This document shows, piece by piece, positions 18,377 through 49,597 of a stretch of 64,000 bases of DNA. A program made the position numbers and the translations under genes. The stretch's first letter is position 1, and each line of letters starts with the position of its first letter. The stretch lies in NCBI GenBank assembly GCA_963796105.1, contig CAWCKJ010000003.1, positions 384,001-448,000 on the forward strand, read 5' to 3'. This DNA comes from a candidate division FCPU426 bacterium. Its GTDB lineage: Bacteria > Oederibacteriota > Muellerivitia > Muellerivitales > Muellerivitaceae. The notes beneath the pieces were generated by a model that saw only the letters and a program-made list of their open reading frames with translations, was not told where the DNA came from and did no database searches.

Positions 18377-18408
18377 TCCTTCCCTCCTAAAAACCTTATA
18401 TAAAAAAA

Positions 18409-20943: not shown

Positions 20944-20952
20944 TCACTTCTC

Positions 20953-27099: not shown

Positions 27100-27531
27100 T
27101 CAACCACCAGATGCTGAAACAACATTCCCCACATTTTGTACAGATGACAAAGGATAATTCACCCCGTTCACCTGAACAGCAGGACCGTTCGCGTAATAAA
27201 CAATTCCGCTGACTTGCCCAGTCGTAAACCCGCTCGGCTGACTCGGATCCGCCACTGTGACAGTTTGCCCAATCATTGAAACGGCTGAGTTTTCCAAAAC
27301 CGTTTCCATGCTTGTATTCATGTTGGACATTTGTTCCAGGGACGAAAACTGAGCCAATTGAGCGACAAACTGGCTGCTATCCTGCGGATTCATCGGGTCC
27401 TGGTTCTTCAGCTGTGTGATCAGGAGCGTTAAAAAAGTGCTCTGGGACACAAACTGATTATTCGCGGTAACTGCGCCGGCCAAAGCGTTACTGTTGCTAG
27501 AACTTGAACCACTTACCCCGCTGATTGCCAT
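27100..27531 (-). CDS. flgD: Hook cap protein (short)
   Basis: FLTLLITQLKNQDPMNPQDSSQFVAQLAQFSSLEQM. Confidence 0.95.
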   Translation of the reverse strand: MAISGVSGSSSSNSNALAGAVTANNQFVSQSTFLTLLITQLKNQDPMNPQDSSQFVAQLAQFSSLEQMSNMNTSMETVLENSAVSMIGQTVTVADPSQPSGFTTGQVSGIVYYANGPAVQVNGVNYPLSSVQNVGNVVSASGG

Positions 27532-27569
27532 TAAAATCACCCCGCTTTCGATTCCAACTCTTACGTAAA

Positions 27570-27619: not shown

Positions 27620-30600
27620 TTAAACCAACATATCCACCAAAGAAGTTCGCAGGGACATAGGCGCTAAAACATCAATATTTTCAAGCGTTTCAGAGGATTG
27701 GAGCGCCAAATCGGACAAATAACCCTTGTTAGAAGGGCCAAAACCTTCCCTCTGATATTGGAAATATTGGGCCAAAAGGTTCGTGGACCCGCCTTGAACA
27801 TGGACTTGGAGCTGGTCAATCTGGAGGCCCGATTGGCTTAAGGCGGCCTTTAAATCGACCAAGTTATGCTGAAGGGCTTCCTTGACATCAGGATTGGACA
27901 CTGTAATCCTGGCTGATACAGCCTGATCCACCAGTGAAACCTGCACGGTAACCCGGCCTAAGTTGGCGGGGACCAATTGGAAGTTGAGCGAAGTTACCAT
28001 TTTTGCATCTGCGGCGTGAGCCGTGATTTGATCCGTAACTTGCCGGAATAACGTCACATTATCCAAAGTATTATTCTGCTGATTCAAAACCGCGTTATTC
28101 CCGGCAGACAAGATAACTTTATCAGCATCTCCATTATCCCCGGACGTTTTTAGGTTTGGATTGGTTAAGTCCTTATTCCCGGAGCCGGTCAACACGGAAT
28201 TGCTTGAAATCAATTCGTTCATTTGCGAGGAATTTCCTGTGTTGGCAACTGCGATTACAGCCTGAGGCGTCAACGGTTGGACCACCGATGTAGTTTCGAC
28301 ATTCAAGTTGCCCAGAGAAGTATTGTCAGTAGATTTCAGCAGGTTCTGAGTTGTAACCTGAGTTTTGCTCGCGTTCAACGTTGACATTGAACCAGTCAAG
28401 TTTTGAGCGTTTGTAACCTGGGGTGCTAAGGAAGCGGGATTAAATGTTTGATCAACAGCTTTCCTAGCGCCGGGATTACTCTGATTTTCAAGTGAATAAG
28501 CGGGATCATTGTTGGTAAGATTTTTCGAATTTCCAGGAGAATGATTGCCCATGGAAACTGATAAATTTATTCCCGGAGATAAACTTTGCTGAGAGGCATT
28601 CGTGTTTTGCAGATCCAGGCTTGAAGCAATCAAGTTTTGTGCGGTGATATCAGAAATACTGTCACTTAAAGGATTTTCTGGAATCGAAGGGTTCGAATTA
28701 TTCATTGATATTCCCTGATTCGAGGAACTATTTAGAATTATCGAAACTGGTTGAGCAGTCGATGGATTTGATTGCTTTTGTCCATTATTTTCTAAAATTG
28801 TTTGATTTTGTTCTTTAGGCTCAGATAGCAAAAGTTGATTTTCATCTTTTTGGCCGTTCAAAGAAGCAATCGGGATTTGCCGTTGTGAAGTCTGAAGCGC
28901 ATCTTTCGGAATCACTGAGACTTCGGCAAAAATTGCGGTTTCGCTAAGCACTTTTGAATTTTGTGAGTTGGGCGATCCAACTTCAATATTAGGAATAATC
29001 AAGCCTGTGCTTGTCGTCAACCTTGACCGTTTGTCGCCGCCATCAATGGTTAGACCACTCTGGCCAGAAGTTTGATCATTTTGGCTCTTCACATCCGGTG
29101 TCCTTGTTACCGGCTTCGTAGGTTGCACATCAGCTAATATGTCGATTGGGGCGGAAATAACATTTGAAATTTCAGGATCGGAGATTACAGCATTCTGTTG
29201 TTGAACCGAGTTATTTATTGTTCCCACATTATTTTGCTCGTTTCCATTGTTGGGCGCAGAATTCGTTCCTGCCGGAGTAAAATTCCGGAATTGAGAAGAG
29301 TTATTAATCTTAATTGAATTTCCAACTGCTTCGCTAAAATTCAACAAATTCCTCTGGGCCAGCAAATTATTGATTTGGTTTATCTCATGCGTGTCCCACG
29401 AACCTAAAGCCTCGAAATGGCTCGGAAAACCCTTTTGATTCAAGGTTGAATTTTGCGATGCCAAGAGCGCTTCAGCATTCAAATTGTTATTTATGGTTGG
29501 AGTTTTTCCATCTTCGATCGGCAGTACAAGATTATTAACCTGAGAAGAGACATTATTCTTAGAAGAAATTTGGCTCAAGATTGTTCCCAATTGAATATCT
29601 TGATTCTCCCGCAAAATGCTAGTCGTTTGATTTGTGGGCAAAGGACCGTCATCGGTTTTGCCCGCAGGGATTGAAAGGTATTCATCAGGAGTTTGATGAC
29701 TGGGAGCAGCTAGCAATTTTGAATCCGGCGAATTATTTTTGTTGCCATTTTGCGAGGTGTTTAAAACCACCTGATTCGCGCCAACTTTAGTAAGTAATTG
29801 AACTAAATTTTTTAAGTTTTGGACGTCATTTGAATTAGAAGTGCCGGCTTGAACAGGTTCTTGGATTACAGTTATCGGCTGGTATTGAGTTCCATTTGCG
29901 CCCAATTCCGATAAGGTTTTCAAAACAGCATTTACCTTTTCTTGAGAAATGGTTCCATTAGTGTCCAAAGGAACTCCCGGACGGGGAGTGAATAAAAAGG
30001 GCTCTTGAATTCCATTTGTCAGGCTTTGGTTTACTTGTTGACCCGAATCAACACTGGCGGCAAAATCAGAAATAGTTTGATTCGTTTCGGATGTTGCACT
30101 ATTGAAATTCAAGTCCTGGTTTGGCTGATTTAACAGAGTTAGCAATTGCGTGTTTTGAGACAAGATTTGCTGTAAAAGATTCCAAGCGTTGTTTTGGATC
30201 CCTGTAGAGGTCTGTATTCCAGGATTAGTTTTATCTGTCAGTTCAGCGTTTTTCAAATCGCTTAAAATTTCAGCGGCATCCGCTGAACTTATTTTTCCTC
30301 CCCCAAGCGATGCAAGAAGGTTTTGAGCTTGGGCCGGATCATTTTGAGCGAGATTTAAAAGACGGCTAATAAATTCTTTTAAATCAGGCATCTGCTGAAC
30401 CGAAGGTATTAATACAGAAGCATTGCCGTTTATTATAGCGTTCCCATGATTATCTTGAATTAAGCCCGAATCGTTTGATTTTGAATTCTTATTGAATACA
30501 GCACTGTTGTTATCATTTGAATTACCATTACCAGATGTAAATACCTTGCCCATAACGTCATCAAAAGAGTTACCCTGCGAATTGCCACCCCTAGGAGACA

Positions 30601-30679
30601 CAATAGAACTCTTCAAGAAAGCCGAGCTCTCACTAGGTGCAGCTTGAAATAAACTTAAAAGTTCACTGACGTTTTTCAA
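27620..30679 (-). CDS. fliK: Hook-length control protein (very long, 1019 aa)
   Basis: C-terminal T3S4 domain LNFQLVPANLGRVTVQV...VKEALQHNLVDLKAALSQSGLQID; low-complexity N-terminus; directly upstream of flgD. Confidence 0.87.
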   Translation of the reverse strand: MKNVSELLSLFQAAPSESSAFLKSSIVSPRGGNSQGNSFDDVMGKVFTSGNGNSNDNNSAVFNKNSKSNDSGLIQDNHGNAIINGNASVLIPSVQQMPDLKEFISRLLNLAQNDPAQAQNLLASLGGGKISSADAAEILSDLKNAELTDKTNPGIQTSTGIQNNAWNLLQQILSQNTQLLTLLNQPNQDLNFNSATSETNQTISDFAASVDSGQQVNQSLTNGIQEPFLFTPRPGVPLDTNGTISQEKVNAVLKTLSELGANGTQYQPITVIQEPVQAGTSNSNDVQNLKNLVQLLTKVGANQVVLNTSQNGNKNNSPDSKLLAAPSHQTPDEYLSIPAGKTDDGPLPTNQTTSILRENQDIQLGTILSQISSKNNVSSQVNNLVLPIEDGKTPTINNNLNAEALLASQNSTLNQKGFPSHFEALGSWDTHEINQINNLLAQRNLLNFSEAVGNSIKINNSSQFRNFTPAGTNSAPNNGNEQNNVGTINNSVQQQNAVISDPEISNVISAPIDILADVQPTKPVTRTPDVKSQNDQTSGQSGLTIDGGDKRSRLTTSTGLIIPNIEVGSPNSQNSKVLSETAIFAEVSVIPKDALQTSQRQIPIASLNGQKDENQLLLSEPKEQNQTILENNGQKQSNPSTAQPVSIILNSSSNQGISMNNSNPSIPENPLSDSISDITAQNLIASSLDLQNTNASQQSLSPGINLSVSMGNHSPGNSKNLTNNDPAYSLENQSNPGARKAVDQTFNPASLAPQVTNAQNLTGSMSTLNASKTQVTTQNLLKSTDNTSLGNLNVETTSVVQPLTPQAVIAVANTGNSSQMNELISSNSVLTGSGNKDLTNPNLKTSGDNGDADKVILSAGNNAVLNQQNNTLDNVTLFRQVTDQITAHAADAKMVTSLNFQLVPANLGRVTVQVSLVDQAVSARITVSNPDVKEALQHNLVDLKAALSQSGLQIDQLQVHVQGGSTNLLAQYFQYQREGFGPSNKGYLSDLALQSSETLENIDVLAPMSLRTSLVDMLV

Positions 30680-34381: not shown

Positions 34382-34810
34382 TCAATTTGAATGAATGTTT
34401 TTATATCTCTTTGGTTTTGTAACCTTTTGATTAATAAAATTTTCGTCTTTTAAAGTTTTTTGATTTTTAAATTTGTCTATATCATTTTTCAGTTCTTCCG
34501 AAAGGGTTTTTATGCATTTCTCGCACATCTTTCCTTGGGAAATGGGAATTCCACAGCTTTCACAGTACAACCCTGTATCAACCTTTACAAGCCTAAGACG
34601 ATTTTCACGAACATATCTAAATATTTCTTTTATATCAATACCTGTTTCCTGAGAAATTTCTTGTGCGGTTGCACTTGGGCGGGTCGACAAAAAATGGAAA
34701 ATTTTCGTGTAATTGTTTTCTTCTTCTTTAATACAAATAAGACAAATATCCCTTCCGCCAGGAACTTGATTAAATACTTTGCCACATTTTGTACAATTTG
34801 CCCAACTCAT
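34382..34810 (-). CDS. yvyF: Flagellar operon protein YvyF (TIGR03826-like)
   Basis: NCTKCGKVF...ICLIC, HTH, CESCGIPISQGKMCEKC. Confidence 0.88.
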   Translation of the reverse strand: MSWANCTKCGKVFNQVPGGRDICLICIKEEENNYTKIFHFLSTRPSATAQEISQETGIDIKEIFRYVRENRLRLVKVDTGLYCESCGIPISQGKMCEKCIKTLSEELKNDIDKFKNQKTLKDENFINQKVTKPKRYKNIHSN

Positions 34811-35292
34811 GAAAAGATTTTCTGATGGATTTCAGTTGCTCCCTTTAATCTTTCATAAAGCATATGACTAATACCAATACCACCAACGGAGGCCAACTGG
34901 GTACTTAGTTGTTCATCATGCATAGACTCAAAAAAACCATACGCCTGCGAATTCCCCAATAAACCGGATTTTTGTACGGAATTTCTCATTTCTTTTAAGA
35001 GCATTTGAAGGAATAACGACTCAAAATCTTTTGAAACCTTTTGAATTTCAGAATCGGAATGGAGATGAACCCCAGATACTGGATTTATGTGGTTCAATGG
35101 ACTTAAAGATTGGGTCGAAGGGCTAGAAGGCAAATGAGAAATATAAGTATTGTTAATAATAGCATCCCCAGCCATTTGTGAAGTTATATTTGATTTTGAA
35201 GTTTGATTCGGTTGAAGTGAATTTCGATAATTAAAATCGGTTCTGTTTTGAAGGGGTAACAAGGGTTCTATGGGTTGAGAATATAAATTCAT
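34807..35292 (-). CDS. flgJ: FlgJ rod-binding domain protein (no muramidase domain)
   Basis: VSKDFESLFLQMLLKEMRNSV...GGIGISHMLYERL. Confidence 0.85.
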   Translation of the reverse strand: MNLYSQPIEPLLPLQNRTDFNYRNSLQPNQTSKSNITSQMAGDAIINNTYISHLPSSPSTQSLSPLNHINPVSGVHLHSDSEIQKVSKDFESLFLQMLLKEMRNSVQKSGLLGNSQAYGFFESMHDEQLSTQLASVGGIGISHMLYERLKGATEIHQKIFS

Positions 35293-35310
35293 GTAATCAA
35301 TCTCCGAATA

Positions 35311-36432
35311 TTATATGATTTCAAGCTCCGCATGTAAGGCGCCAGCTGCTTTAATGGCTTGAAGAATTGAAATCAAATCCCTTGGGGTAGCTCCTACAGC
35401 GTTAATCGCCGAAACCACATCAATTAAAGATGCGCCCTCAGGCAAAACAATTAAATTGCCCTGTTTACCAGTATCCTCAGCGCTTAATGTAGTTGTGTGA
35501 GTTAATTCATCATGACCAAAAACAGCGTCATGGGAAATTTGTGTGGTCTTTTTAACTACTAAATGTAAATTTCCATGAGCAATTGCAACCGCTTCAATCC
35601 GAACATCTTGCCCTAGTACTACTGTTCCTGTACGCTCATTAACAACAACACGGTTTTCAGAAGAATCAGTCAAAACAGGGGTGTCTTCAACCGCTGCTAT
35701 GAAATCAACGACATTATCTTTGTAATTGTTCGGGATTTTCACTTCAATTTGTCCGCCATCAGTTGCCTTTGCAACTTGTTCTCCAAATTGCTGGTTTATA
35801 GCTTGCGTGGCTAAAGAAGCCTGCCCGAAATCAGGATGATTTAATAATATTGCGATTGTGTCATTATCAATAAAAGTGGAAGGAACTTCTCGCTCCACCA
35901 AAGCACCATTTGGAACTCTCCCAGTTGATGTACTATCAACTTGAACCAATGGAAATTCACCAGTGTTGTCAGAAAATCCACCAACCGCAAGCGGACCTTG
36001 AGCAACAGCATAAACCTGTCCATCAGGCCCTTGTAGAGGGGTCATCAAAAGAACACCCCCTTGCAAACTTCTAGCGTCCCCTACTGAAGAAACGATAACA
36101 TCAATTTTATCTCCTGATTTTAACAATGGGGACAATTGTGCAGTCGCCATAATAGCAGCAACATTTTGAGTTCTAATTTGATCCGGACCAATTTTAATTC
36201 CAAATTGATACAACATATTGGTAATGCTTTGTAACGTTGATACGACTCTCTGCGTATCACCAGTTCTTTGTAATCCAACAACCAGACCATATCCAATCAG
36301 CTGATTTTCGCGAACTCCCTTTACCTTCCCAATAGTTTTCAATCTCACCTGAGCGGCATTTAATGGCAAAAATATAAAGCATAATAAAAATACGCTTAAT
36401 ACAAACTTTATCCAATTTAATGATTTGTTCAT
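35311..36432 (-). CDS. flgI: P-ring protein
   Basis: GVRENQLIGYGLVVGL, SLQGGVLLMTPL, ILQAIKAAGALHAELEII. Confidence 0.96.
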   Translation of the reverse strand: MNKSLNWIKFVLSVFLLCFIFLPLNAAQVRLKTIGKVKGVRENQLIGYGLVVGLQRTGDTQRVVSTLQSITNMLYQFGIKIGPDQIRTQNVAAIMATAQLSPLLKSGDKIDVIVSSVGDARSLQGGVLLMTPLQGPDGQVYAVAQGPLAVGGFSDNTGEFPLVQVDSTSTGRVPNGALVEREVPSTFIDNDTIAILLNHPDFGQASLATQAINQQFGEQVAKATDGGQIEVKIPNNYKDNVVDFIAAVEDTPVLTDSSENRVVVNERTGTVVLGQDVRIEAVAIAHGNLHLVVKKTTQISHDAVFGHDELTHTTTLSAEDTGKQGNLIVLPEGASLIDVVSAINAVGATPRDLISILQAIKAAGALHAELEII

Positions 36433-36452
36433 TCTCAGCTCCTCACTAAAAA

Positions 36453-37073
36453 CTAAAATAAACCAAGCCAACTCATTATCCTTGTCAAAATTCCAGGTTT
36501 CGCAGATTCCGATGCAGGCCCGGTGCCCGTTATTTTTATTTTCGCATTGGCGACCCTAGAAGATAAAACCATGTTATCACGAGTAATATCATCAGGCCGG
36601 ATTTCACCGGTAACTTCGATTGTTTGCTTATCGTCATTTACTTCGACATATCTATTTCCATCAATTAAATAGTTACCATTCGGAAGAACCGAAATAATTT
36701 TTGCAGTCATTTCACCCGTAATAGTTGTGCTTCTACTTGAAGTACCCTGTCCCTGATGAGCCGAACTGGCGCCGACTCCAATTTGATTATTTGTATTTAA
36801 AACATTTGCCCCGTATACGCCTGCACCCATATACCCTGTTCCAGCGCCTATAGCTAAACTGGAAGTTTTTTGGTTTTGACTACTAGCGGCCTGTGTTGCC
36901 TGTGTATCCTCTTGTATCATAACAGTTATTACATCGCCCACTCTTCTTGCTCTTTTTTCGTTATAAATTGAACTTGTTCCTTCTAAAGGGTAAAGAGAAT
37001 CTGCCATCAACTTTTGAATCAAAGGCATTATTAGAATCACTATAAAAAAGAAAATCACTTTACGCATGATCAA
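36453..37073 (-). CDS. flgH: L-ring protein
   Basis: KRARRVGDVITVMIQE, VLPNGNYLIDG, GEIRPDDI, PGILTR. Confidence 0.93.
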   Translation of the reverse strand: MIMRKVIFFFIVILIMPLIQKLMADSLYPLEGTSSIYNEKRARRVGDVITVMIQEDTQATQAASSQNQKTSSLAIGAGTGYMGAGVYGANVLNTNNQIGVGASSAHQGQGTSSRSTTITGEMTAKIISVLPNGNYLIDGNRYVEVNDDKQTIEVTGEIRPDDITRDNMVLSSRVANAKIKITGTGPASESAKPGILTRIMSWLGLF

Positions 37074-37086
37074 CCCCTATCCCGAA

Positions 37087-38061
37087 CTACTGTTTTTCAT
37101 CAATTAAAACAGTTTTTTCGTCTAAAACCTTCCCATGTAATACTTTACCAGAATCCGTATTTAATACCTGAATATTATCCCCCGCTTTTCCATCAAAAAG
37201 AGCTTTTGCTTGAATGCTTAATTCTATATTTCCCTTATGGACAATCGCCTGTATCAATTGGGCTCTTTTTATAACAGGTGGATCGTTTAGTTCACTAAGT
37301 CGAATTATTGAACCTATTGGCAATGAGTAAGCTGCTGTTCTTCCCAAAACATTTTCTGCTTTTTGTAAAAAACCCGGAAGAATTTTTGAACTTTGCATTC
37401 TAACCAATCCAACATTAGAAGCTTTAAATTTTTCCCCTTTTTCGACCATTTTTGTTGTTGTCACAACTGATCGGTATATTTCCGAATCGACTCGCAAAGG
37501 CAATACGCGCACAATGCGACCATCCACAGATAATTCAGTCGTTAGTAATACTGAACCCTCATACTTTCCTGAAAAAGAAGGACGAAAACTTGCAGTTACG
37601 TTGCCGGCCGGTAAAACTATTTTCTTGTTCCCGCCCAATACTTTTACTTCAACATTTGCCGGCTGGTCTTGAATTTGCTTCAAAATAAAATTTTTTATTC
37701 CAGGCAATAAACTTTGAGGTGAAAACTCTTGCCCTCGAGTCATTACTTGAACCAATTCAGGGCCCTGAAATGCAAAATCTTCAATATTACAACCTTCTCG
37801 CCGAAGAACAATCCTAACGTATCCCTTTGTTATCTTAATAACATTACCAGCCGGCGCAGTCCTTCCGATTTTAATTTTGCTTAACTTATCAATAACCGTT
37901 TTATTGTTTCCTATTAAGTCCGCGACATCACCTAAAGTAATATCAGGCCCAACTACATTCGTTTTTTCAACGAATTTAATTATTAATTGCCCATTTGCGG
38001 CCAGAAGCAAATTAGTAAAAGAAAAAAACACAAAAAACAAAACGGTTACTATTTTATTCAT
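37087..38061 (-). CDS. flgA: P-ring assembly chaperone
   Basis: ITLGDVA N-domain, SAF domain, ALFDGKAGDNIQVLNTDSGKVL. Confidence 0.9.
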   Translation of the reverse strand: MNKIVTVLFFVFFSFTNLLLAANGQLIIKFVEKTNVVGPDITLGDVADLIGNNKTVIDKLSKIKIGRTAPAGNVIKITKGYVRIVLRREGCNIEDFAFQGPELVQVMTRGQEFSPQSLLPGIKNFILKQIQDQPANVEVKVLGGNKKIVLPAGNVTASFRPSFSGKYEGSVLLTTELSVDGRIVRVLPLRVDSEIYRSVVTTTKMVEKGEKFKASNVGLVRMQSSKILPGFLQKAENVLGRTAAYSLPIGSIIRLSELNDPPVIKRAQLIQAIVHKGNIELSIQAKALFDGKAGDNIQVLNTDSGKVLHGKVLDEKTVLIDEKQ

Positions 38062-38076
38062 GCCGCTAAATCAATA

Positions 38077-38874
38077 TCATGGAAATTGCTTCATAGTTGA
38101 AATGTCATACAGCATTGAATCGGAAGTTGAAACAGCCTTGGAATTTAACTCATATGCCCTTTGTGCGACTATCAAATTAACCATTTCACTCACCACATCA
38201 ACATTGGATGCCTCTAATTCACCCTGTTGAACTTGTGGAAAACCTACTGAACCAGGGGTGCCTTGAATCGGCGACCCGGAAGCGGGTGTCTCTTGATAAA
38301 GATTATTTCCTAATGCCTCTAACCCCGCAGGATTAACAAAGCGAGTTAATTCAAGCTGTCCAACTTGTGCCTGTTGGGTTCCACCAGCGGTTTGGATCAT
38401 AATCTGACCCGTTGCGGTTATCTGAATCTGCGAGGTATCAGCTGGAAGTTGAACAGGGGGATCTAAAAAATACCCATTTGCAGTAACCAGATTTCCATTA
38501 GCATCCTGGGTAAATGAACCATCCCTCGTATATGCAGTAGTTCCATTAGGAAGAGTTACCTGAAAAAAACTATTATCTCCCGCAATCAACAGATCAAGAG
38601 GATTATTCGTGTTTTGGATAGGGCCTTCAGTGAAAATCCTCTGCGTGGAAACCGGCTTGACACCTTCTCCTACTTGAAGACCTACAGGTGTGTTCGTGTC
38701 CGGAGACGTCGGATTACCAGCAGGCTTAAGATCCCGATATAAAAGATCCTGGAAATCAACTCTTTGCTTTTTAAAACCCGTTGTACTGACATTGGCAAGG
38801 TTGTTTGAAATTGTATCAATATTTAACTGTTGCGCAGCCATACCAGTTGCTGCTGTGTACAGTGACTGCATCAT
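38077..38874 (-). CDS. flgG: Distal rod protein
   Basis: MMQSLYTAATGMAAQQLNIDTISNNLANV, YTRDGSF, LEASNVDVVSEMVNLIVAQRAYE. Confidence 0.96.
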   Translation of the reverse strand: MMQSLYTAATGMAAQQLNIDTISNNLANVSTTGFKKQRVDFQDLLYRDLKPAGNPTSPDTNTPVGLQVGEGVKPVSTQRIFTEGPIQNTNNPLDLLIAGDNSFFQVTLPNGTTAYTRDGSFTQDANGNLVTANGYFLDPPVQLPADTSQIQITATGQIMIQTAGGTQQAQVGQLELTRFVNPAGLEALGNNLYQETPASGSPIQGTPGSVGFPQVQQGELEASNVDVVSEMVNLIVAQRAYELNSKAVSTSDSMLYDISTMKQFP

Positions 38875-39024: not shown

Positions 39025-39810
39025 TTAAACCCTTAAGGTCCCAATTTCAGTTGCAGCTTCATTTAAAACATGGTCATAAGTAGAAATAACCCTTGAATTC
39101 AACTCATAATTTCTATAAGTATCAATCATGTTTACCATTTCCATCATTGAATTAACGTTTGATTGCTCTAAATAACCTTGCTGAACTTGAATTCCATCCG
39201 GTGAACTATCTATTTTGTTTTGTGTTTTAACCTCGAATAAAGAATGTCCAACTTTATTGAGTTGATTTTCATTTTGAACTTTAACAATTAACAATTGATC
39301 CAAGGCTTTCCCGTCAACCATCAAATTCCCTTGTTGATCAGAAGTAACCTCAGTTCCATCAATATAAATTTCGCCATTATGTCCCAAGACCGGTAAACCA
39401 TCCTTTGTTACCAGTCGCCCATTTGAATCTAAGCTAAAGTTACCATCTCGAGTTAACCAAGTTTTTCCATCTGGTCCTAAAACCGAGAAAAAACCGGAAC
39501 CATTGAGTGCAAAATCAAGGGGACTTTTAGTCTCAAGGTGTGACCCTTGTGAATAATCAGTGGTTATCGTTTGTGGTATTACTCCTCCTCCCATAACTCC
39601 AATATTTGGCCTCAACTCAGCAGTACCATCCATCACATTAATTCGTTGATCATGAATTCTGGCAATTAAATAAGTTGGAAAAGCTACATCCACAGACCGG
39701 TTTTGCTTAAATCCAATAGTGCTGACGTTAGCCAAGTTGTTAGCAATAACGTCTTGTCGCGCAAGTGTAGAGTTCAAGCCAGATGCAGCAATGTATAGTC
39801 CGCTCGGCAC
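39025..39810 (-). CDS. flgF: Rod protein FlgF
   Basis: GLYIAASG...DVIANNLANVST.GFK, LTRDGNF, GYLEQSNVN; upstream of flgG; AAGGAG SD with GTG start. Confidence 0.88.
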   Translation of the reverse strand: MPSGLYIAASGLNSTLARQDVIANNLANVSTIGFKQNRSVDVAFPTYLIARIHDQRINVMDGTAELRPNIGVMGGGVIPQTITTDYSQGSHLETKSPLDFALNGSGFFSVLGPDGKTWLTRDGNFSLDSNGRLVTKDGLPVLGHNGEIYIDGTEVTSDQQGNLMVDGKALDQLLIVKVQNENQLNKVGHSLFEVKTQNKIDSSPDGIQVQQGYLEQSNVNSMMEMVNMIDTYRNYELNSRVISTYDHVLNEAATEIGTLRV

Positions 39811-39844: not shown

Positions 39845-41419
39845 TCAACGGCTATGCACTGGCACAGCAGTTCCAGCTGCTTGAATAACGGTACTATAGG
39901 GTAATGCAACAGCACTTATTTCTTTGGATCTTGAACTTTCTGTTCCATCGTTTCCAACTGTCGTTAAAGAAAAGAAATATCTTTGTCCGACTTTTAACTT
40001 CCGAACCAGATAGGTTGGAACATTACTAATGGGCTGAGCATTTACTTTTTCAAACCGCCCACCTGAAACTTCTGAAATGTAAATATTATACCCTTTTGCA
40101 CTGATCTTTCCCGGATCAGCCAACCCCGCTATTCCGGCTTGCTTAGCAATATCAATGACACCCTCATTTTGAAGCTCGCTTTGAACCACAACCGGTGCGC
40201 CAGGAGCAGATGTCGTGCCAGCTATTATCTCTCTTGAATATTGACTTTCAACTGGAGGTACAGTATTGGTTATTGAACTTACCACAAAATAATAATGAGT
40301 ATTTTTCTCTAATCCACGTAGCGAATAATAATTTGCCTTTACCGGTTTTTGGTTGATTTTTACATAACCTCCACCAGAAGTTTTAGTGAAATAAACGTTA
40401 TATCCAGCCAAGGAAAGGGACGGTGAATTTACCCACCTAAGGGTAATAATATCGCCATCCACTGATGCATTTAAACCTTCCGGAATAAAACTTTTCACTT
40501 TCCCCAAGAAAGACTCGCCAAACCGCCAATTGGCAGAGATCCGATGCGTTGCTCCTAGAAATTCAGCATGACCCATATAAGCATAATCAATTCCCCAAGA
40601 TTTTGAACGATAACTGATCCCAGCAGTAAACTGTCCAGGAAGTGTCATAAAATCACTATACCCGGTTCTGATTCCAAGTTGGTCCTCAAAAAACCAGCCT
40701 TCAATACCTGCGTGCAACAGTGTATGATCCCCTACTGTTTGGTCACTAATGCTTTCAAATTCCCAAGCTGTAACTAAATCGTCAGTAAACTCATAACTAA
40801 ATCCACCCCTGACACTCAATGCAACCGGATCAACGTTTCCACCCTGCCAACGAATAGTTGTGTCCACATCTTGAGCGCATAAACCAATATTTATTTGTTT
40901 TCCATATCGAGGATTCAAAATTGGCATATGATATAGAAAACCCAGATCAAGGCCCCAACCAGTAGCTTGAAGTCCTGGTTGATTTGACGAATCCGCACCA
41001 TAAAGTTTTAAATTCAGCCCGCAAGAAATAGACTTATCAATCGCTAATGGCGCTGCAAAAGACCCATAATAAATCCGTTCATTCAAGGAGCCGTCAGTAA
41101 AAAAATGTTGTTGAGTGGCAATTGCCCACGCCATTTGATCGCCAAAAGGCTGCACATACACGCCTTCAAAATCATCCTCTTTTCCGTTTAAAAGAATTGC
41201 GGCCATTCCTGATATTTCAGGGCGTAAAACTTGAACAAGACCAGCAGGATTGAAAAAAACCGCATCACCAGAATCCGCTACTGTTGTAAATGCCCCACCC
41301 ATTCCCAAAGGTCGAGCACCAATACCCGTAACGCCGCCTTTAGCAAAAGTCTGTGCTTTCACAGAAGTTATCGGCAGCAAAAGCAATAATAGGATGGCAG
41401 CTAAATTCCTAATAACCAT
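39845..41419 (-). CDS. PorV-like beta-barrel fused to two fibronectin type III domains
   Basis: GIGARPLGMGGAFTTVADSGDAVFFNPAGL...IDYAY...THRISANWRFG, then two (A/K)GYN(V/I)Y...L...Y(Y/F)F FN3-like modules. Confidence 0.82.
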   Translation of the reverse strand: MVIRNLAAILLLLLLPITSVKAQTFAKGGVTGIGARPLGMGGAFTTVADSGDAVFFNPAGLVQVLRPEISGMAAILLNGKEDDFEGVYVQPFGDQMAWAIATQQHFFTDGSLNERIYYGSFAAPLAIDKSISCGLNLKLYGADSSNQPGLQATGWGLDLGFLYHMPILNPRYGKQINIGLCAQDVDTTIRWQGGNVDPVALSVRGGFSYEFTDDLVTAWEFESISDQTVGDHTLLHAGIEGWFFEDQLGIRTGYSDFMTLPGQFTAGISYRSKSWGIDYAYMGHAEFLGATHRISANWRFGESFLGKVKSFIPEGLNASVDGDIITLRWVNSPSLSLAGYNVYFTKTSGGGYVKINQKPVKANYYSLRGLEKNTHYYFVVSSITNTVPPVESQYSREIIAGTTSAPGAPVVVQSELQNEGVIDIAKQAGIAGLADPGKISAKGYNIYISEVSGGRFEKVNAQPISNVPTYLVRKLKVGQRYFFSLTTVGNDGTESSRSKEISAVALPYSTVIQAAGTAVPVHSR

Positions 41420-43589
41420 TCGGGCCTACCTTCTCACCATTTATATGGATGTCCGAAAGCTGCAAAAACTGTAACTGATTTATTTTCCCAACAGCAAAAT
41501 TAGCAGCCACTTGGGTTGGAGTAATTATAACCAATTCATTTTTTCCATAATATACACGAGTTGATATCTCTTTTAAACCTGTTCCTACTGAATTCACACC
41601 CGTTTTTACCACTTCTCCCGCTTCTTGGAATATATAAGGGACATATGTCAAATGGGAACGATAATTTATAATAATAATAGCGTCCCCATTAAGGTTTTTA
41701 TCAAAATGAGCATTTAGCACTTGATCTGGGTTCAAATGGTTAAATCCCATTACCGGAACATTACCAGCTTCCGGATAACCCGTATTATTGGCAGAATCAG
41801 TCGGGTTAACATTTTTCTGCTGAGCATTAGCGGTATTGGATACTAATTCCATGGATTCAAGCATTTTCTTGAGATTTTCCTGAGCCAAAGTTGTAAGTTT
41901 TTTCCGTTCTTGCTCAAGTAATGATTGTTGTTGTCGGCGAATGTTGATAAGTTTAGCCGAGTCTTTAATTGATCCCTCATTTACAGAGGATAATATTTCA
42001 ATTGTTTGAACGGGGGTTGAACCAATATGTTCTAATTGATCTTGGACTTGAAAAGCCCAAGTATAAACACCCGGCGGTAAGGGTTGATACTCATCATCTT
42101 CACCACTCCAAAGCAATTTAGTTGTAGGTGATCCAACCCCTCTTAAACCCCTCACCAAATGGTTGTTTTTATCATAAATTAATACGCTCCAACGATTAAC
42201 TGTAACATCCTCAGTTGTATCTAAATGAAATTCCGCTTTTTCACCTTGAGCAGGAAAAAATGAGGCCGGTTGAACATAAGCTCCTACTTTAGGTGGCGGC
42301 AACTCCTCTCCTCCGCCAAAGCGATAAGCCATTCCAATATAAAAATTCTCAAAATTTATACCACCCGTGTCATATGAACCAATAGCTGATCCCGCTGTTA
42401 CACTCGCAGAAGGAGAAACTGGCAAAAGATAAGCCGCATCTGTTTGAAAATCTCCGTTGAAAGCTCTTAAGCTTAATCCTAATGAAAAAATTCCGGGACG
42501 ACTTAAAGGCGTTGAATAACCCCCACGTACGGCCATAACGTCCCTAAAAAACCAGAATTCTGTTCCGAAACGAAGATATTTATTATCGGAATCCGAAAAT
42601 CTCGGATCAGAAATTTGGTCAAAATCAATTGCAGTAATATTTCGTATTTTAAATAAGTAAGCATTTTTATACGCAAATCCTAATGTGATTTCTGGCGGAA
42701 TGTTAGCTTGATATCCTGGTCCCACATTAAAAGTAATGGGGGTAGCACCAGGAGGAATGTACAAGATATTAGAACCCGCAGTTAGGCCATTTGGATATTG
42801 CGCCAAACCCACTAAATCGTTCAAAGCTAAACCAATTCTAAATTCCTCTGAATATTTAGTTATTGGAATTCTATAAAGGATACCAACATCCACTCCAAAT
42901 CCGGTAACTTGAGTCGCATTATTAAGTGCCTTTGCCAAACTAGGGTCATTTCCAAAATATCGTATGTAATAAGGATCGTTTGTAATTCTTTTTATATTAA
43001 CTCCAACCGAAAAATTCCTAACAGCAGAAAAACGAGCCGCATAAGAAAGAAGAATTTCACTTTGTTGAAAACTCGGATTTTGAAGATAACTAAATTGCGA
43101 CGATGTCGGTTGATCTAAAAAATTATTTCCAATATATAAATTGCGTTGATCGTGAAAGGGCCGGAAAAGAGATATCCCTAATGTATTTTCTTTTGCAAGT
43201 GGAGCAATAAATTGGAAGGAAGCGTACCATGGAAATCCAAATCCAGGCTTTCCATTAACCTTGTCCATGAAATAATCGGGAGCACTTGAGATTGATAATT
43301 CGTAAGATGAAAGCTGAGCCAAACCAGCAACATTCCAATAAGCTGCTGATGCATCATCCGAAATTGCGACAAATGCCCCACCCATTCCAATAGCCCTGGG
43401 ACCAATTCCTGAGGTTTCCTTCCATCCGAAAATAGGGTTGATCGTTTGAGAATAAGCAACATTTGCAAATAAAATAATAAATAAAAAACCAATTAATAAA
43501 TTAAGATTTCGTTTATGCGCATTCGAGTACCGAATAATTCTTTTATTTAATTTTTGCACCTTTATCATCACCCTTCTTGTTTTACCCAA
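41409..43589 (-). CDS. PorV-like beta-barrel plus FlgD-Ig-like domain and coiled-coil tail
   Basis: GIGPRAIGMGGAFVAISDDASAAYWNVAGL; WSVLIYDKNNHLVR...LLWSGEDDEYQPLPPGVY; start may lie slightly downstream. Confidence 0.8.
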   Translation of the reverse strand: MGKTRRVMIKVQKLNKRIIRYSNAHKRNLNLLIGFLFIILFANVAYSQTINPIFGWKETSGIGPRAIGMGGAFVAISDDASAAYWNVAGLAQLSSYELSISSAPDYFMDKVNGKPGFGFPWYASFQFIAPLAKENTLGISLFRPFHDQRNLYIGNNFLDQPTSSQFSYLQNPSFQQSEILLSYAARFSAVRNFSVGVNIKRITNDPYYIRYFGNDPSLAKALNNATQVTGFGVDVGILYRIPITKYSEEFRIGLALNDLVGLAQYPNGLTAGSNILYIPPGATPITFNVGPGYQANIPPEITLGFAYKNAYLFKIRNITAIDFDQISDPRFSDSDNKYLRFGTEFWFFRDVMAVRGGYSTPLSRPGIFSLGLSLRAFNGDFQTDAAYLLPVSPSASVTAGSAIGSYDTGGINFENFYIGMAYRFGGGEELPPPKVGAYVQPASFFPAQGEKAEFHLDTTEDVTVNRWSVLIYDKNNHLVRGLRGVGSPTTKLLWSGEDDEYQPLPPGVYTWAFQVQDQLEHIGSTPVQTIEILSSVNEGSIKDSAKLINIRRQQQSLLEQERKKLTTLAQENLKKMLESMELVSNTANAQQKNVNPTDSANNTGYPEAGNVPVMGFNHLNPDQVLNAHFDKNLNGDAIIIINYRSHLTYVPYIFQEAGEVVKTGVNSVGTGLKEISTRVYYGKNELVIITPTQVAANFAVGKINQLQFLQLSDIHINGEKVGPNGY

Positions 43590-43620
43590 ATCATATTGAA
43601 TAAAACGATTATTTTATATT

Positions 43621-43920
43621 TTATTTCACTTTTTCGCCAGTATCTGTTTTGTAAATCGCCACCAAAATTTCCGCAACAATTTGATATAGGTTAGATGGTA
43701 TATCTTGGTTTATGTTTAGTTTATCGAGCATATCGACAAGTAACCTGTCTTCTAAAACAGGAACTCCATTTTTTTTTGCGATATTTATTAATCTTTCCGC
43801 AATCATCCCTTTCCCTTTTGCAATAATGCGTGGTGCAGGCATTGTTTTCTTATCATACCTAAGTGCGATAGCAGTTTTACGAAGAATTCTCTTTCGCGGC
43901 AAAGATTCCGGAGGGCTCAA
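43621..43920 (-). CDS. FlhB C-terminal-like protein (YlqH/EscU-type)
   Basis: AIALRYDKKTMPAPRIIAKGKG.IAERLINIAKKNGVP...IPSNLYQIVAEIL. Confidence 0.9.
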   Translation of the reverse strand: MSPPESLPRKRILRKTAIALRYDKKTMPAPRIIAKGKGMIAERLINIAKKNGVPVLEDRLLVDMLDKLNINQDIPSNLYQIVAEILVAIYKTDTGEKVK

Positions 43921-44075
43921 ACCTCATCCAATCCATTTCAGTAGTGGCCCTACAGGGACACTTATTCCCGCTTCAAAACAATGGTTATACTCATAAATTA
44001 AAAAACAGTTTATCTTATAAATTTTACTCTAAACGCATTTTATATCTCATTGTTTAACCCTTTTCCATTTTAGAA

Positions 44076-44242
44076 GTGAAACATCTCCACGGGCGTAAAG
44101 GTCGGGGCTTCGGGCCGTGGTGGGATCTAAAAACAAGAGCAAATCAAAGTTCCTCACCTGCGGACCGCCTAAACCCGTCAGCCCTCCGAGCTGCCATTCA
44201 TCCCTAGGTTTAAAAGCCTGGGGATTAACTGGCGATTTTTAA
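44076..44242 (-). mobile_element. Non-autonomous IS200/IS605-family miniature element (LE and RE hairpins only)
   Basis: GC-rich patch; LE-like ATCGCCAGTTAATCCCCAGGCTTTTAAACCTAGGGATGAATGGC and RE-like GAAGCCCCGACCTTTACGCCCGTGGAGATGTTTCAC. Confidence 0.62.
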
Positions 44243-44293
44243 TAGACTAACTTTATTTATCATGAATTGACAAAATAAGGTTTTACTTTAAGC

Positions 44294-44911
44294 TCAATTC
44301 GGCGTTGTAAAATTTCTTCCCCTTAAATTTAAAATCAGTTGTATCTCCGCCAAACTCAATTTTGTTATTTTCGCAATTTCGTTTAATTCGTAATCATCAT
44401 CAACCAAACGATAAATTTCTTTTACAATTGATGAAGAAAAACTTACCATTTCCTCGCCTTGTATGAATTGCGGTTTTTTAAAACCTTTTTTCGGTACATT
44501 TATAATTTCATTTGTCCCACGGGTATTTTTTTTAATACCATTGTCCGTATTATTCGATCCTTTAAACATCGCAGTATTATCAGGCAATAGACATTTTAAA
44601 TCATTAGTTGATTTATTAATTTTGGAGTGCAAAATTTTCATATTGTGAATATTTATTTCTAGTTCTTCTTTTTTTTTATCCGCAGATTCAACTTGAGCTC
44701 GAACTTCATCTGTAACTTTTTTTCCAACTTCTTTCATAATTAATAATAATTCTTGAAGATTATTTTTCATTTCTTGGATCTGAATATCATTAATCAAATC
44801 AATATCCTCTTTTTTGCGAGAGATTAAACTAGTGGAATAATGAAACAAAAAAAGAATAGAAAACAGTAAAACTGTGTCAAATAAAACTTGAGTAATTATA
44901 AAAATTACCAC
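44294..44911 (-). CDS. Membrane-anchored coiled-coil protein with C-terminal HTH (DUF2802/DUF6115-like)
   Basis: N-terminal TM; IYRLVDDDYELNEIAKITKLSLAEIQLILNL. Confidence 0.7.
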   Translation of the reverse strand: MVIFIITQVLFDTVLLFSILFLFHYSTSLISRKKEDIDLINDIQIQEMKNNLQELLLIMKEVGKKVTDEVRAQVESADKKKEELEINIHNMKILHSKINKSTNDLKCLLPDNTAMFKGSNNTDNGIKKNTRGTNEIINVPKKGFKKPQFIQGEEMVSFSSSIVKEIYRLVDDDYELNEIAKITKLSLAEIQLILNLRGRNFTTPN

Positions 44912-44912
44912 T

Positions 44913-45233
44913 TTAAACCTTTATGTCGATGTGGTTTTTACTACTTTTTACAAAATTCGATTCCTCATTCTTAATGTTCTTATCCCCTTCGTAATAACCT
45001 TCTTCGCCATTAAATTGTTGATGACTCGATTGATCTTCGTCCTGAATCAGACTCAGATGGTTTGAATTTGATTTTTCCGATTCTTGAACTTGTTCCCTTA
45101 TTTTTCTTAAGTGCTCCATCGATTCCAATTGCGTTAAAATTTGTTTTCTGTTTTGTTCCGATTGAAAAACCACCTGCATTTTAGCTAGCGCATCCCCCTG
45201 CATTTTTAAATAATTACCATCTAAACCGTACAT
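44913..45233 (-). CDS. Hypothetical flagellar-operon protein
   Basis: Directly downstream of fapA; ends NHIDIKV. Confidence 0.7.
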   Translation of the reverse strand: MYGLDGNYLKMQGDALAKMQVVFQSEQNRKQILTQLESMEHLRKIREQVQESEKSNSNHLSLIQDEDQSSHQQFNGEEGYYEGDKNIKNEESNFVKSSKNHIDIKV

Positions 45234-47740: not shown

Positions 47741-48148
47741 TTACTTATCAGGGGAAAATTCAGGGAAAGTAAAATCAATTGTTTTACCTTTATCATTATT
47801 GTCGTCAGAAGTATTTTCTTGACCTGATCTAGTTTCTTGCTGTTCCGTTTTGAACCTCATATCAATTGAAACATCCTTTAACAAGTTTTCACGATTTAAT
47901 AAATTTATAAAATAACGAAGAAAAAACCATAATATAACCACTCCCAAAAGAAAACCCGCAAAAGAAGCGCCTAAAAATGCTAATACTAAACTATCCATAG
48001 GCACCCCCTGGTAAGCTCCAATCATTGTTATAATTAAAAAACCAAATGCCGAACCAATTGAACCAGAAACCATATACATTCTAACTAAACTGGATGGTTT
48101 CTCTTTGGTGATTTCATAGTATTGTTTATTTTTGGGCCTGTCAGACAT
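47741..48148 (-). CDS. Hypothetical two-TM membrane protein
   Basis: Two hydrophobic helices; ends KGKTIDFTFPE; GAGGAG SD. Confidence 0.7.
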   Translation of the reverse strand: MSDRPKNKQYYEITKEKPSSLVRMYMVSGSIGSAFGFLIITMIGAYQGVPMDSLVLAFLGASFAGFLLGVVILWFFLRYFINLLNRENLLKDVSIDMRFKTEQQETRSGQENTSDDNNDKGKTIDFTFPEFSPDK

Positions 48149-48349
48149 AACAACTCCTCTAATTCATTTTTTAAACATTTTTATTTTTTTCAACATCAAT
48201 TATCAAACTTGCTTTGACTCACTTTTTGTTATACCCATTTTCATCATACCAGTTAAGTGAATTTTAAGGCATGAAGAAAATCTTTATAATCGTTAAAAAA
48301 TAAATAAATTAAAATATAAAATAAATTTCACAAGATTCACTCCAATAAA

Positions 48350-48386
48350 CCAATCCGAAACTTCTCAGGAACCGCCAGAAATAAAT
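48350..48386 (-). pseudogene. Possible flhG remnant
   Basis: Frame reads *FISGGS*EVSD where flhG normally follows flhF; very short match. Confidence 0.25.
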
Positions 48387-48397
48387 CACTTTAGAAT

Positions 48398-49597
48398 TTA
48401 ACTTAATAGTGACCTTACAATCCTTTCTGATAATGTATTTACTTCAGCAATCTCAAGATCATCAGGAACGTTTTGTCCTGTTGCGTAATAAGACAATGGA
48501 ATTTGAAAATTATTCATCAAATTCAAAAAAGCTCCATAATATCGCGTTTCGTCCAATTTCGTAAAAATCATTCTATTGATTGGGACTGCAAGACCAAAAC
48601 ATTCTATGATTCTTATCATGTCATAGTATTTAGTAGTTGAAGACAGAACAAGGTGAATTTCATCGGGCTGACTTTTTGTTATAAATAACTTTAATTCATC
48701 TAATTGTTCGTTATTGGAAGGACTACGCCCAGCAGTATCAAGCAAAACCAAATCCACACCTTTATGCCGTTCAATTATTCCCTCAATCTCGTCGGAAGAA
48801 TTCGCTACCTCAACAGGTATTCCCATAATCCTCCCATATGTTTTTAATTGTTCAGTTGCAGCAATTCTGTATGTATCTGAAGTAATTAAAGTAACTTTTT
48901 TCCTATTTACCAAACTAAATTTCGCCGCAAGTTTAGCTAAGGTGGTTGTTTTCCCAACGCCGGTGGGGCCAACAAAAGCAATAACTTTTTGAAACCCATT
49001 GAAAGTTAAAGGACTTGCCACCTTTATTAAATTTGATACAAATCGTTGCAACCAAAATTGAACTTCCTCATTTTTTTCAACATTAATTTTTTCATTTATC
49101 ATCCCACGAACAATTCTTTGAATTAGGAACTCCTCAATTTCTTGTTTTACCATTTTTTTCTTAAACCTTGCCAACCCTTCGGCGATTATTAGATTTGTAT
49201 CATTCGGGGTATATTCTTTCATTACAGTTGGCACGGTTGAAGTTTTCATTTCATTAAGTTCCCGCTGTAATGCTTTCACTTTAGTTCTATTCGGATCTAA
49301 ATTTTCTATTACTAGCGTAGAATCTCTACTCAGCATGTTATGTCTTGAAATTTGATGATCTTTTTTTTCAATAGGTATTTGAAGTGATAGAGAGGTATTT
49401 TTTCTCTTAGCAAAATCATCTAATAAATTCAAATCTAACCCGGCAGTTATTTCCGCCATATGTTTACCAAAAAGACCTAAAACACCCCCTTTGCGAAAAG
49501 TTTTAGTATATAAGATCACAGCTTCTGGGCCCAAGTCCTTTTTCACTTTCACTAAAGCTTCTTGAATAGTTGGCGCTTCATACCTTTTTATTCTCAT
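48398..49597 (-). CDS. flhF: SRP-family GTPase FlhF
   Basis: GPTGVGKTTTLAKLAA, DTYRIAA, DTAGRS, TKLDE, GQNVPDD. Confidence 0.96.
   Translation of the reverse strand: MRIKRYEAPTIQEALVKVKKDLGPEAVILYTKTFRKGGVLGLFGKHMAEITAGLDLNLLDDFAKRKNTSLSLQIPIEKKDHQISRHNMLSRDSTLVIENLDPNRTKVKALQRELNEMKTSTVPTVMKEYTPNDTNLIIAEGLARFKKKMVKQEIEEFLIQRIVRGMINEKINVEKNEEVQFWLQRFVSNLIKVASPLTFNGFQKVIAFVGPTGVGKTTTLAKLAAKFSLVNRKKVTLITSDTYRIAATEQLKTYGRIMGIPVEVANSSDEIEGIIERHKGVDLVLLDTAGRSPSNNEQLDELKLFITKSQPDEIHLVLSSTTKYYDMIRIIECFGLAVPINRMIFTKLDETRYYGAFLNLMNNFQIPLSYYATGQNVPDDLEIAEVNTLSERIVRSLLS

Follow-up and report, generated by a model that had tools for sequence, protein, structure and literature searches.

A pair of PorV/FadL-type barrel proteins encoded within the flagellar rod and ring operon of a candidate division FCPU426 bacterium

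In the flagellar gene cluster of a candidate division FCPU426 bacterium, two overlapping minus-strand genes lie between a gene related to the C-terminal part of flhB and the rod gene flgF; the whole stretch of contig CAWCKJ010000003.1 that was analysed, 64,000 nucleotides long, is called the window here. The first gene, at 41409-43589, encodes P_B (726 amino acids (aa), TTG start), with a predicted PorV/FadL-type barrel, an Ig-like domain, a helix and a C-terminal domain, while the second, at 39845-41419, encodes P_A (524 aa, ATG start), with a predicted PorV/FadL-type barrel and two FN3 domains. The start codon of P_B is uncertain, and the public collection has a 716-aa form. The two open reading frames (ORFs) overlap by 11 bp, and 34 bp lie between the end of P_A and flgF (39025-39810, minus strand; Pfam Flg_bb_rod, LlgE_F_G_D1 and Flg_bbr_C). 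Upstream, 31 bp separate P_B from the end of a minus-strand ORF at 43621-43920, whose 99-aa product resembles the C-terminal domain of FlhB (Pfam Bac_export_2, E 1.2e-20; NCBIfam TIGR00789 flhB_rel, 92.6 bits, under its cut-off of 117). The rest of the rod/ring operon, all identified by Pfam, occupies 34807-38874 on the same strand and consists of flgG, flgA, flgH, flgI and a gene for a rod-binding protein like the N-terminal part of FlgJ. An earlier reading of the bare sequence (the sequence-only reading) had placed the pair between an FlhB-like gene and flgF-flgG-flgA-flgH-flgI, 34 bp from flgF; the coordinates agree with this, and the identity of the flanking genes is confirmed by Pfam.

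All of these genes form part of a single long minus-strand flagellar cluster, which runs from about 64000 down to about 24600 of the window. Its first part encodes, in order, FliF (the end only), FliG, FliH, FliI, FliJ, MotA, MotB, FliL, FliM, FliN, FliO, FliP, FliQ, FliR, FlhB, FlhA and FlhF; then come a 135-aa membrane protein, FliA, FapA, two unknown proteins, the FlhB-C-like protein, P_B and P_A. After P_A the cluster continues with FlgF, FlgG, FlgA, FlgH, FlgI, the rod-binding protein, a YvyF-like protein, FlgN, FlgK, a FliK-like protein, FlgD, a TIGR02530 protein and FlgE.

Near their N-termini, P_A carries the motif GIGARPLGMGGAF...ADSGDAVFFNPAGL and P_B the motif GIGPRAIGMGGAF...SDDASAAYWNVAGL; the PorV-type signature GxRxxGMGGAF...NPAGL that had been claimed for both overlapping genes is thus found in both proteins. 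Their signal peptides are plain (...SVKA/QT and ...VAYS/QT, the slash marking cleavage) and have no lipobox cysteine. Against the NCBIfam model NF033709 (PorV/PorQ family, or PorV_fam; curated cut-off 90 bits), P_B scores 88.2 bits over residues 62-391 (profile 11-310 of 326), or 89 bits in a six-frame search (90.6 with neighbours), and P_A scores 57.8 bits over residues 33-299 (profile 11-325), with 53.2 bits in the six-frame search. The PorV equivalog NF033710, with a cut-off of 250 bits, is not reached by either (P_B 26.5, P_A 12.9 bits). Neither window protein matches Pfam PF03349 (FadL/TodX channels) at E <= 0.01; some orthologues of the pair carry a precomputed match to that family. No match to the FlgT/FlgO/FlgP accessory-ring families was found for either protein in Pfam or NCBIfam. 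The two barrels are 27% identical to each other (E 3e-26).

The only Pfam match in P_A is fn3, at residues 313-385 (E 1.8e-9). Of the two FN3 domains proposed for this protein by the sequence-only reading, the first (residues 313-402; 40214-40483, minus strand) is the one seen by Pfam and also matches PDB 3mpc_A at E 2.4e-5, and the second appears as a beta-sandwich in the structural model (residues 419-504; 39908-40165, minus strand), where FN3 tandems dominate the Foldseek list. P_B has weak Pfam matches to TraF_2 and FlgD_ig only, the latter at E 0.0096 for the whole protein and 0.0032 for the tail alone, under the 27-bit cut-off, and its tail matches FlgD in the PDB weakly by sequence (E 0.08-0.17). 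The FlgD-Ig domain attributed to it holds as an Ig-like sandwich fold, while the FlgD label itself is weak by sequence. Compared with the hook cap FlgD, P_B shows this weak similarity in its Ig-like domain but has neither the FlgD N-terminal domain (PF03963) nor the tudor domain; the genuine flgD lies at 27100-27540 (minus strand) and encodes a short protein of 146 aa with N-terminal and tudor domains and without an Ig domain.

Structures were predicted with AlphaFold (AF2) from alignments of 20 orthologues for P_A and 22 for P_B, giving a mean predicted local distance difference test score (pLDDT) of 69.8 and 74.7, respectively. In P_A, the N-terminal motif and barrel take up residues 25-300 (40520-41347, minus strand), with 14 long DSSP strands between residues 68 and 300, and two beta-sandwiches follow at about 313-402 and 419-504. 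In P_B, the N-terminal motif and beta-barrel lie at residues 53-426 (42312-43433, minus strand; barrel about 59-424 in the model), followed directly by an Ig-like beta-sandwich at 430-535 (41985-42302, minus strand; 436-532 in the model), a long helix and possible coiled coil at 544-578 (41856-41960, minus strand; as judged by the pLDDT and secondary structure of the AF2 model), a disordered linker at 579-613, and a conserved, family-less alpha/beta domain at 624-720 (41430-41720, minus strand; pLDDT 81-92). The linker between the last barrel strand and the next domain is about 10-12 residues in the models.

The best barrel match of both models in Foldseek is PorV of F. johnsoniae (6h3i_F for P_A, E 4.9e-8; 8gl6_F for P_B, E 1.8e-10, TM score 0.63). 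The P_B model was also searched with VIA-align against 48,161 chains, a whole-model search that barely probed the C-terminal domain. Here the barrel (aligned over model residues 46-431) matches PorV 6h3i_F with Z 28.3 and a root-mean-square deviation (rmsd) of 3.4 A over 291 residues, followed by FadL (Z 26.8) and TodX (Z 26.1); three of the best seven matches are chains of the beta-barrel assembly machinery (BAM) complex of Bacteroidota (9hjm_F, 9n2d_B and 9hj3_F; Z 25.7-26.0). Classical autotransporter barrels reach a Z of about 11-12, versus 26-28 for PorV and FadL. The domain order of P_B, a barrel and then an Ig-like domain, is like that of the inverse autotransporters (intimin/invasin, with a 12-stranded barrel); its best barrel matches are PorV and FadL, and one further match in the list, 5g26_A, has a title that does not identify the protein. 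The Ig-like domain itself is best matched by the C-terminal domain of PorU (6za2_B 1054-1158; Z 13.2, rmsd 2.1 A, 98 residues), versus about Z 10 for unrelated FN3/Ig domains. By fold, then, both barrels are PorV/FadL-like according to Foldseek, and that of P_B also according to VIA-align; on these models P_A and P_B are paralogous barrel proteins of the PorV/FadL type. With the T9SS protein PorV (T9SS, type IX secretion system) they share the GxRxxGMGGAF...NPAGL motif and a FadL-type barrel of about 14 strands, and PorV is the best structural match of both. Unlike them, PorV has no large C-terminal tails, and the pair sits in a rod/ring operon rather than with secretion genes; both proteins score far below the PorV equivalog and PorQ models.

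The C-terminal domain of P_B has no match in Pfam or the ESM Atlas, and searches of the PDB by sequence gave only the weak FlgD Ig matches to the tail. All proteins found in word-based searches with the tail were P_B-like, their names being "hypothetical" or "PorV/PorQ family protein". In a full HMMER profile search of 1.84 billion protein representatives there were 357 matches at E <= 1e-30; among the best 150 of these, the whole-profile matches are all P_B-like, namely ten proteins, 657-772 aa long, that end in the module, plus a 464-aa fragment (P0053), four further partial fragments are also present, and the remainder are long proteins with many repeated Ig-like domains. In these searches, and within the best 150 of the 357 profile matches, the combination of helix and C-terminal domain is seen only in P_B-like proteins of 657-772 aa. 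P0085 and P0091 were rejected along with most of the best 150 profile matches, the common part being repeated Ig-like domains only, as were possible stand-alone shorter forms of the tail (19 matches, for the most part fragments from short contigs). In four genomes from other phyla, the matches were to Ig domains only.

Full-length P_B matches occur in 19 of 24 genomes of the same family and in most other sampled families. To follow the gene order, the flagellar proteins of the window were mapped onto 20-kb stretches around 25 P_B matches. In all 15 loci from the same family or order, the genes from FlhA to FlgK are arranged as in the window, P_B-P_A standing after the FlhB-C-like gene and before FlgF (FlhA...FliA-FapA-..-FlhBc-P_B-P_A-FlgF-FlgG-FlgA-FlgH-FlgI), the FlhB-C-like gene being present upstream of P_B and the 11-bp overlap, by ORF coordinates, being kept in every one. 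P_B-P_A-FlgF is likewise found in eight of the nine loci of other families with enough flank (L047, L049, L050, L051, L054, L147, L148 and L150), and three further loci stop within or just past P_A; the synteny in relatives is thus conserved. P_A adjoins P_B in every P_B locus with enough flank. A fusion of the two genes in family f23, hinted at by long open frames, was rejected, there being a stop codon between them in L147-L150. Among the matches listed from named genome records, which may duplicate genomes already counted, all five full-length ones have a flagellar context: four have P_B-P_A-flgF, and in the fifth (L056) the contig ends inside P_B. None of 75 barrel-only paralogue loci from other phyla, among the matches listed, has flagellar neighbours, a count that says little on other phyla.

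The distribution of the pair was compared with that of flagellar genes in a phylum sample of 99 genomes, P_B being scored by full-length matches to its tail profile (A3, E <= 1e-40), which separate cleanly from Ig-only matches, and flagella by the Pfam families FlgI and FHIPEP (FlhA). P_B was found in 64 genomes, FlgI in 69, FlhA in 69 and either marker in 75; 64 of the 75 genomes with a flagellar marker have P_B, versus none of the 24 without. Those 24, all lacking P_B, FlgI and FlhA, include a genome of the same genus (G001, 93% complete) and several that are 96-100% complete. Of the 11 flagellar genomes without P_B, four (G013, G014, G015 and G041) come from families that otherwise bear it, and their assemblies are fragmentary or break off at the cluster; the G013 contig stops 2.4 kb past flhA.

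Across the 15 close loci, P_A has a mean identity of 71.9% with its counterpart in the window and P_B one of 60.0%, against 72.6% for FlgF, 74.4% for FlgG, 75.8% for FlgI and 68.2% for FlgH, and against 45.1 and 48.0% for the chaperones FlgA and FlgN. Judged by these identities, P_A is conserved like the rod and P-ring proteins. When 59 barrels were placed on a quick maximum-likelihood tree, all 20 rows of P_A fell into one group and all 22 rows of P_B into another (SH-aLRT 91 and 97), with the same family order in both; each group being single and the family orders matching, the pair is older than the split of these families on this tree and has been inherited together.

From gene context and co-occurrence, the pair is probably a dedicated, barrel-anchored, lineage-specific accessory of the flagellar basal body, with tails in the periplasm beside the L and P rings; we put the probability of this at roughly 0.55. 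A flagellar role is favoured because of the context, the distribution and the rod-like conservation. The sequence-only reading had suggested an undescribed outer-membrane accessory of the basal body: in that general form it is the leading reading, through synteny, fold and distribution, with rod exit, L-ring scaffold and sheath, the specific roles that it named, as candidates. Both barrels would sit in the outer membrane with their tails facing the periplasm, and the pair would be produced along with the proteins of the rod and rings. Since, as a general rule, an even-stranded barrel finishes on the side of the periplasm, the tails are expected there; the folded domains begin just 10-12 residues after the barrel, which further suggests that the tails hang into the periplasm next to the L/P rings. 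The FN3 pair of P_A, at most some 8-9 nm long, could lie alongside these rings, and P_B, through its Ig domain, helix and linker of about 35 residues, may extend further inward, as far as the P ring, the peptidoglycan or the stators. The two proteins together might form or anchor a collar, either fixing the bushing in the outer membrane or shielding the membrane during rotation.

Several observations weigh against this assignment. The seven remaining flagellar genomes without P_B, of families f7 and f10, are flagellated all the same, so the pair is not needed for a flagellum as such; the flagellar proteins of these families are the most divergent from those of the window, and in G036 the flgF operon begins directly after unrelated genes. 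In the ninth locus of other families, on the complete chromosome G029, the pair has metK/ahcY on one side and riboflavin genes on the other, and flgI is about 265 kb away. Since the pair adjoins flgF-flgI, that both are missing from draft genomes is in part trivial, and related genomes are non-independent samples in the co-occurrence count. P_A falls under the PorV_fam cut-off, the confidence of the models is moderate, and the strand count of P_B is ambiguous at 14-15. Finally, the two proteins belong to a large PorV-like family, four members of which carry the same Ig-like domain and others of which are encoded beside proteins tagged with a type IX-style C-terminal domain (CTD), and this leaves room for a function in the anchoring of surface proteins.

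That family is prominent in the genome (4.98 Mb in 16 contigs), which has about 19 PorV-like paralogues, many with C-terminal extensions; a P_B-type Ig domain directly after the barrel is found in P_B and three others. The gene for the paralogue nearest to P_A (485 aa) overlaps the end of that for an NHL-repeat protein of 2385 aa, which bears a C-terminal tag of type IX style, and is followed by one for a small TPR protein (L145, G000:C2:36458-45043), and an SprA-like ORF of 2020 aa, under its family cut-off, lies on the same contig as the pair, about 210 kb away. In this organism, Ig-tagged proteins thus seem to have PorV-like barrels as their general partners in the outer membrane, P_A and P_B being two specialised members of the family. 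A link of the pair to CTD-type export had been proposed as well; hints of it exist only at the level of fold, in the PorU-like Ig domain and in the other paralogues beside CTD-tagged proteins, but no CTD-tagged gene adjoins P_B or P_A and none was seen in the core flagellar cluster. Past flgE, at 17381-24108 (minus strand), there are genes for two family-less proteins of 1051 and 520 aa and then a second PorV/PorQ-like barrel pair, at 18409-19380 (323 aa) and 17381-18412 (343 aa), each member scoring 123 bits against PorV_fam. Residues 433-512 of the 520-aa protein weakly match the tail of PorZ. In four of four family genomes examined, flgE, the 520-aa gene and the two barrel genes come in this order, and the first barrel of this second pair (PorV3) is also present in G005 (80% complete) and G009 (65%), where no flagellar marker was found.

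FlgH of this genome (36453-37073, minus strand) has a plain signal peptide (...QKLMA/DSLYP) and no cysteine, so that it is likely non-lipidated; nearly all relatives are alike in this, those without the pair included, and one genome, G017, has a lipobox-like VAGC. FlgH of V. cholerae, in contrast, is lipidated at Cys16 (bioRxiv 10.64898/2025.12.02.691832). A correlation between the pair and a missing FlgH lipobox was considered and rejected, the FlgH proteins of families f7 and f10, which have no pair, also lacking a clear lipobox.

Three other explanations have been weighed against that of a lasting part of the basal body. The pair could be a transient assembly aid that opens or organises the outer membrane when the rod and hook break through, or that helps to insert the L-ring protein, and that is gone from the finished motor. 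Its genes are indeed encoded with flgA, for the P-ring chaperone, and with the ring genes, FlgH has a plain signal peptide in this genome and nearly all relatives, and BAM-complex chains make up three of the seven best barrel matches; on the other side, FlgH has no clear lipobox in the families f7 and f10 either, which are without the pair, and P_A is far more conserved than the chaperones FlgA and FlgN, a level that fits a structural part better. We regard such an aid as unlikely. Quite improbable, too, is a carrier or anchor of a surface protein in the style of PorV-PorU or PorQ-PorZ, or the display of the proteins' own tails at the surface as in inverse autotransporters, with motility involved through co-regulation alone. 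The SprA-like ORF, the overlap of the closest P_A paralogue with the NHL-repeat gene, the best match of the P_B Ig-like domain, to the C-terminal domain of PorU, and the second barrel pair with its PorZ-like neighbour near flgE all point in that direction, but the pair has no CTD-tagged gene next to it and occurs in none of the 24 marker-less genomes, whereas PorV3 is found in G005 and G009. The linkers from barrel to domain are short as well, no intimin/invasin-type barrels are among the matches listed, and the conserved N-terminal segment would fill the lumen of the barrel, as it does in FadL and PorV.

The last of the three, that these are ordinary FadL-like uptake channels riding in the operon with no role in motility, has in its favour the structural closeness of the FadL and toluene channels (Z 26-27) and the PF03349 matches of some orthologues. 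Yet at least 17 families keep the position, the pair is missing from all genomes that lack flagellar genes, P_A is constrained like the rod proteins, and the large conserved tails are foreign to uptake channels; we consider this explanation very far-fetched.

The preferred assignment, an accessory of the basal body, has parallels. Flagellar motors of different lineages differ mainly in the accessory structures around a common core, and the lipoprotein rings of Vibrio and Campylobacterota fix the bushing or protect the membrane during rotation. To our knowledge, the known additions to the motor at the outer membrane (H-ring, basal disk) are lipoproteins; the H. pylori lipoprotein hp0838 is reportedly a further outer-membrane-associated addition. 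The Vibrio H-ring (FlgT/FlgO/FlgP), the Campylobacterota basal disk (FlgP) and hp0838 are like the pair in being lineage-specific and encoded with flagellar genes, and P_A and P_B are both encoded with and distributed with flagellar genes, as accessory-ring proteins are. Those components have no sequence kinship to P_A or P_B and are lipid-anchored or soluble, whereas the pair would use integral beta-barrels. We read the pair as lineage-specific flagellar motor accessories, a class already known, in a barrel-anchored form that would be new. The Vibrio accessory rings around the L/P rings, FlgT, FlgO and FlgP, are lipid-anchored according to the preprint cited above (bioRxiv 10.64898/2025.12.02.691832).

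A second parallel is the attachment complex of the P. gingivalis T9SS. There, PorU and PorZ are held by the barrels PorV and PorQ, which lie above the PorKN ring in the periplasm, and PorG, also a barrel, is linked to PorK by a disulfide bond (PMC12365241). As described in that study, the complex (PorV-PorU, PorQ-PorZ, PorG-PorK) likewise couples barrels to a large sub-membrane ring, which for P_A and P_B is a prediction; in the T9SS, however, the Ig-like CTD is on a separate surface protein and binds in trans, while in P_B it is fused behind the barrel and would be periplasmic, and the ring would be the L/P ring. Carried to its full extent, the comparison would make P_A and P_B the first integral beta-barrel parts of any basal body -- a PorV/PorQ-type pair, one member having a CTD-like Ig domain fused in cis, forming an outer-membrane collar on the L/P rings, so that the type IX module of barrel plus Ig tag plus ring would also have been recruited to the flagellum -- and this bolder proposal we hold as tentative, leaning against it. 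No description of a PorV-type barrel pair in a flagellar operon was found in the literature, judged by titles and abstracts. As an accessory of the basal body, a conserved integral barrel pair would fix the bushing in the outer membrane by other means than the lipoproteins, and a protein family known for its part in type IX secretion would gain a second role in the cell. The flagellated members of f7 and f10 that have no pair offer a natural comparison, in organisms that are uncultured.

Around the pair, a scan for promoters and terminators gave signal counts at chance level, and a sigma-28-like pattern matched once, outside the cluster, equal to the chance expectation. Rfam has no match in 43500-44400. 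Within this region, the AT-rich spacer that separates the gene for an unknown 205-aa protein from the flhB-like gene contains a GC-rich segment some 160 bases long (44085-44245), which has no Rfam match and one weak 49-base match only elsewhere in the genome.

The distance from flhF to the next gene is only 250 bp here (48148-48398), where relatives have about 1 kb with a MinD/FlhG-like ORF (313 aa in L032). A tblastn search of this genome with the L032 ORF found nothing at E < 1e-5, and because of this flhG seems to be missing.

The GC content falls to 33-40% over about 47 kb (window 28000-64000 and on to G000:C3:459000); the genome as a whole has 51.2% GC, and these values lie under its 5th percentile for 5-kb windows. 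The stretch takes in most of the flagellar cluster plus mtnA-like, pyrroline-5-carboxylate (P5C) reductase, secF and secD genes. The idea of a flagellar island gained by transfer is not supported: the low-GC stretch includes secDF and housekeeping genes, flgE and flgD have typical GC, and the flagellar loci of relatives span 40 to 61% GC.

The FliK-like protein of the cluster (27620-30679, minus strand) is very long, at 1019 aa. Three conserved genes without a family also lie within the cluster, at 44294-45233 and 47741-48148 (minus strand), and encode proteins of 205 and 106 aa and the 135-aa membrane protein; all 15 family/order loci have the genes for the 205-aa and 135-aa proteins, with an identity of just 37-39%.

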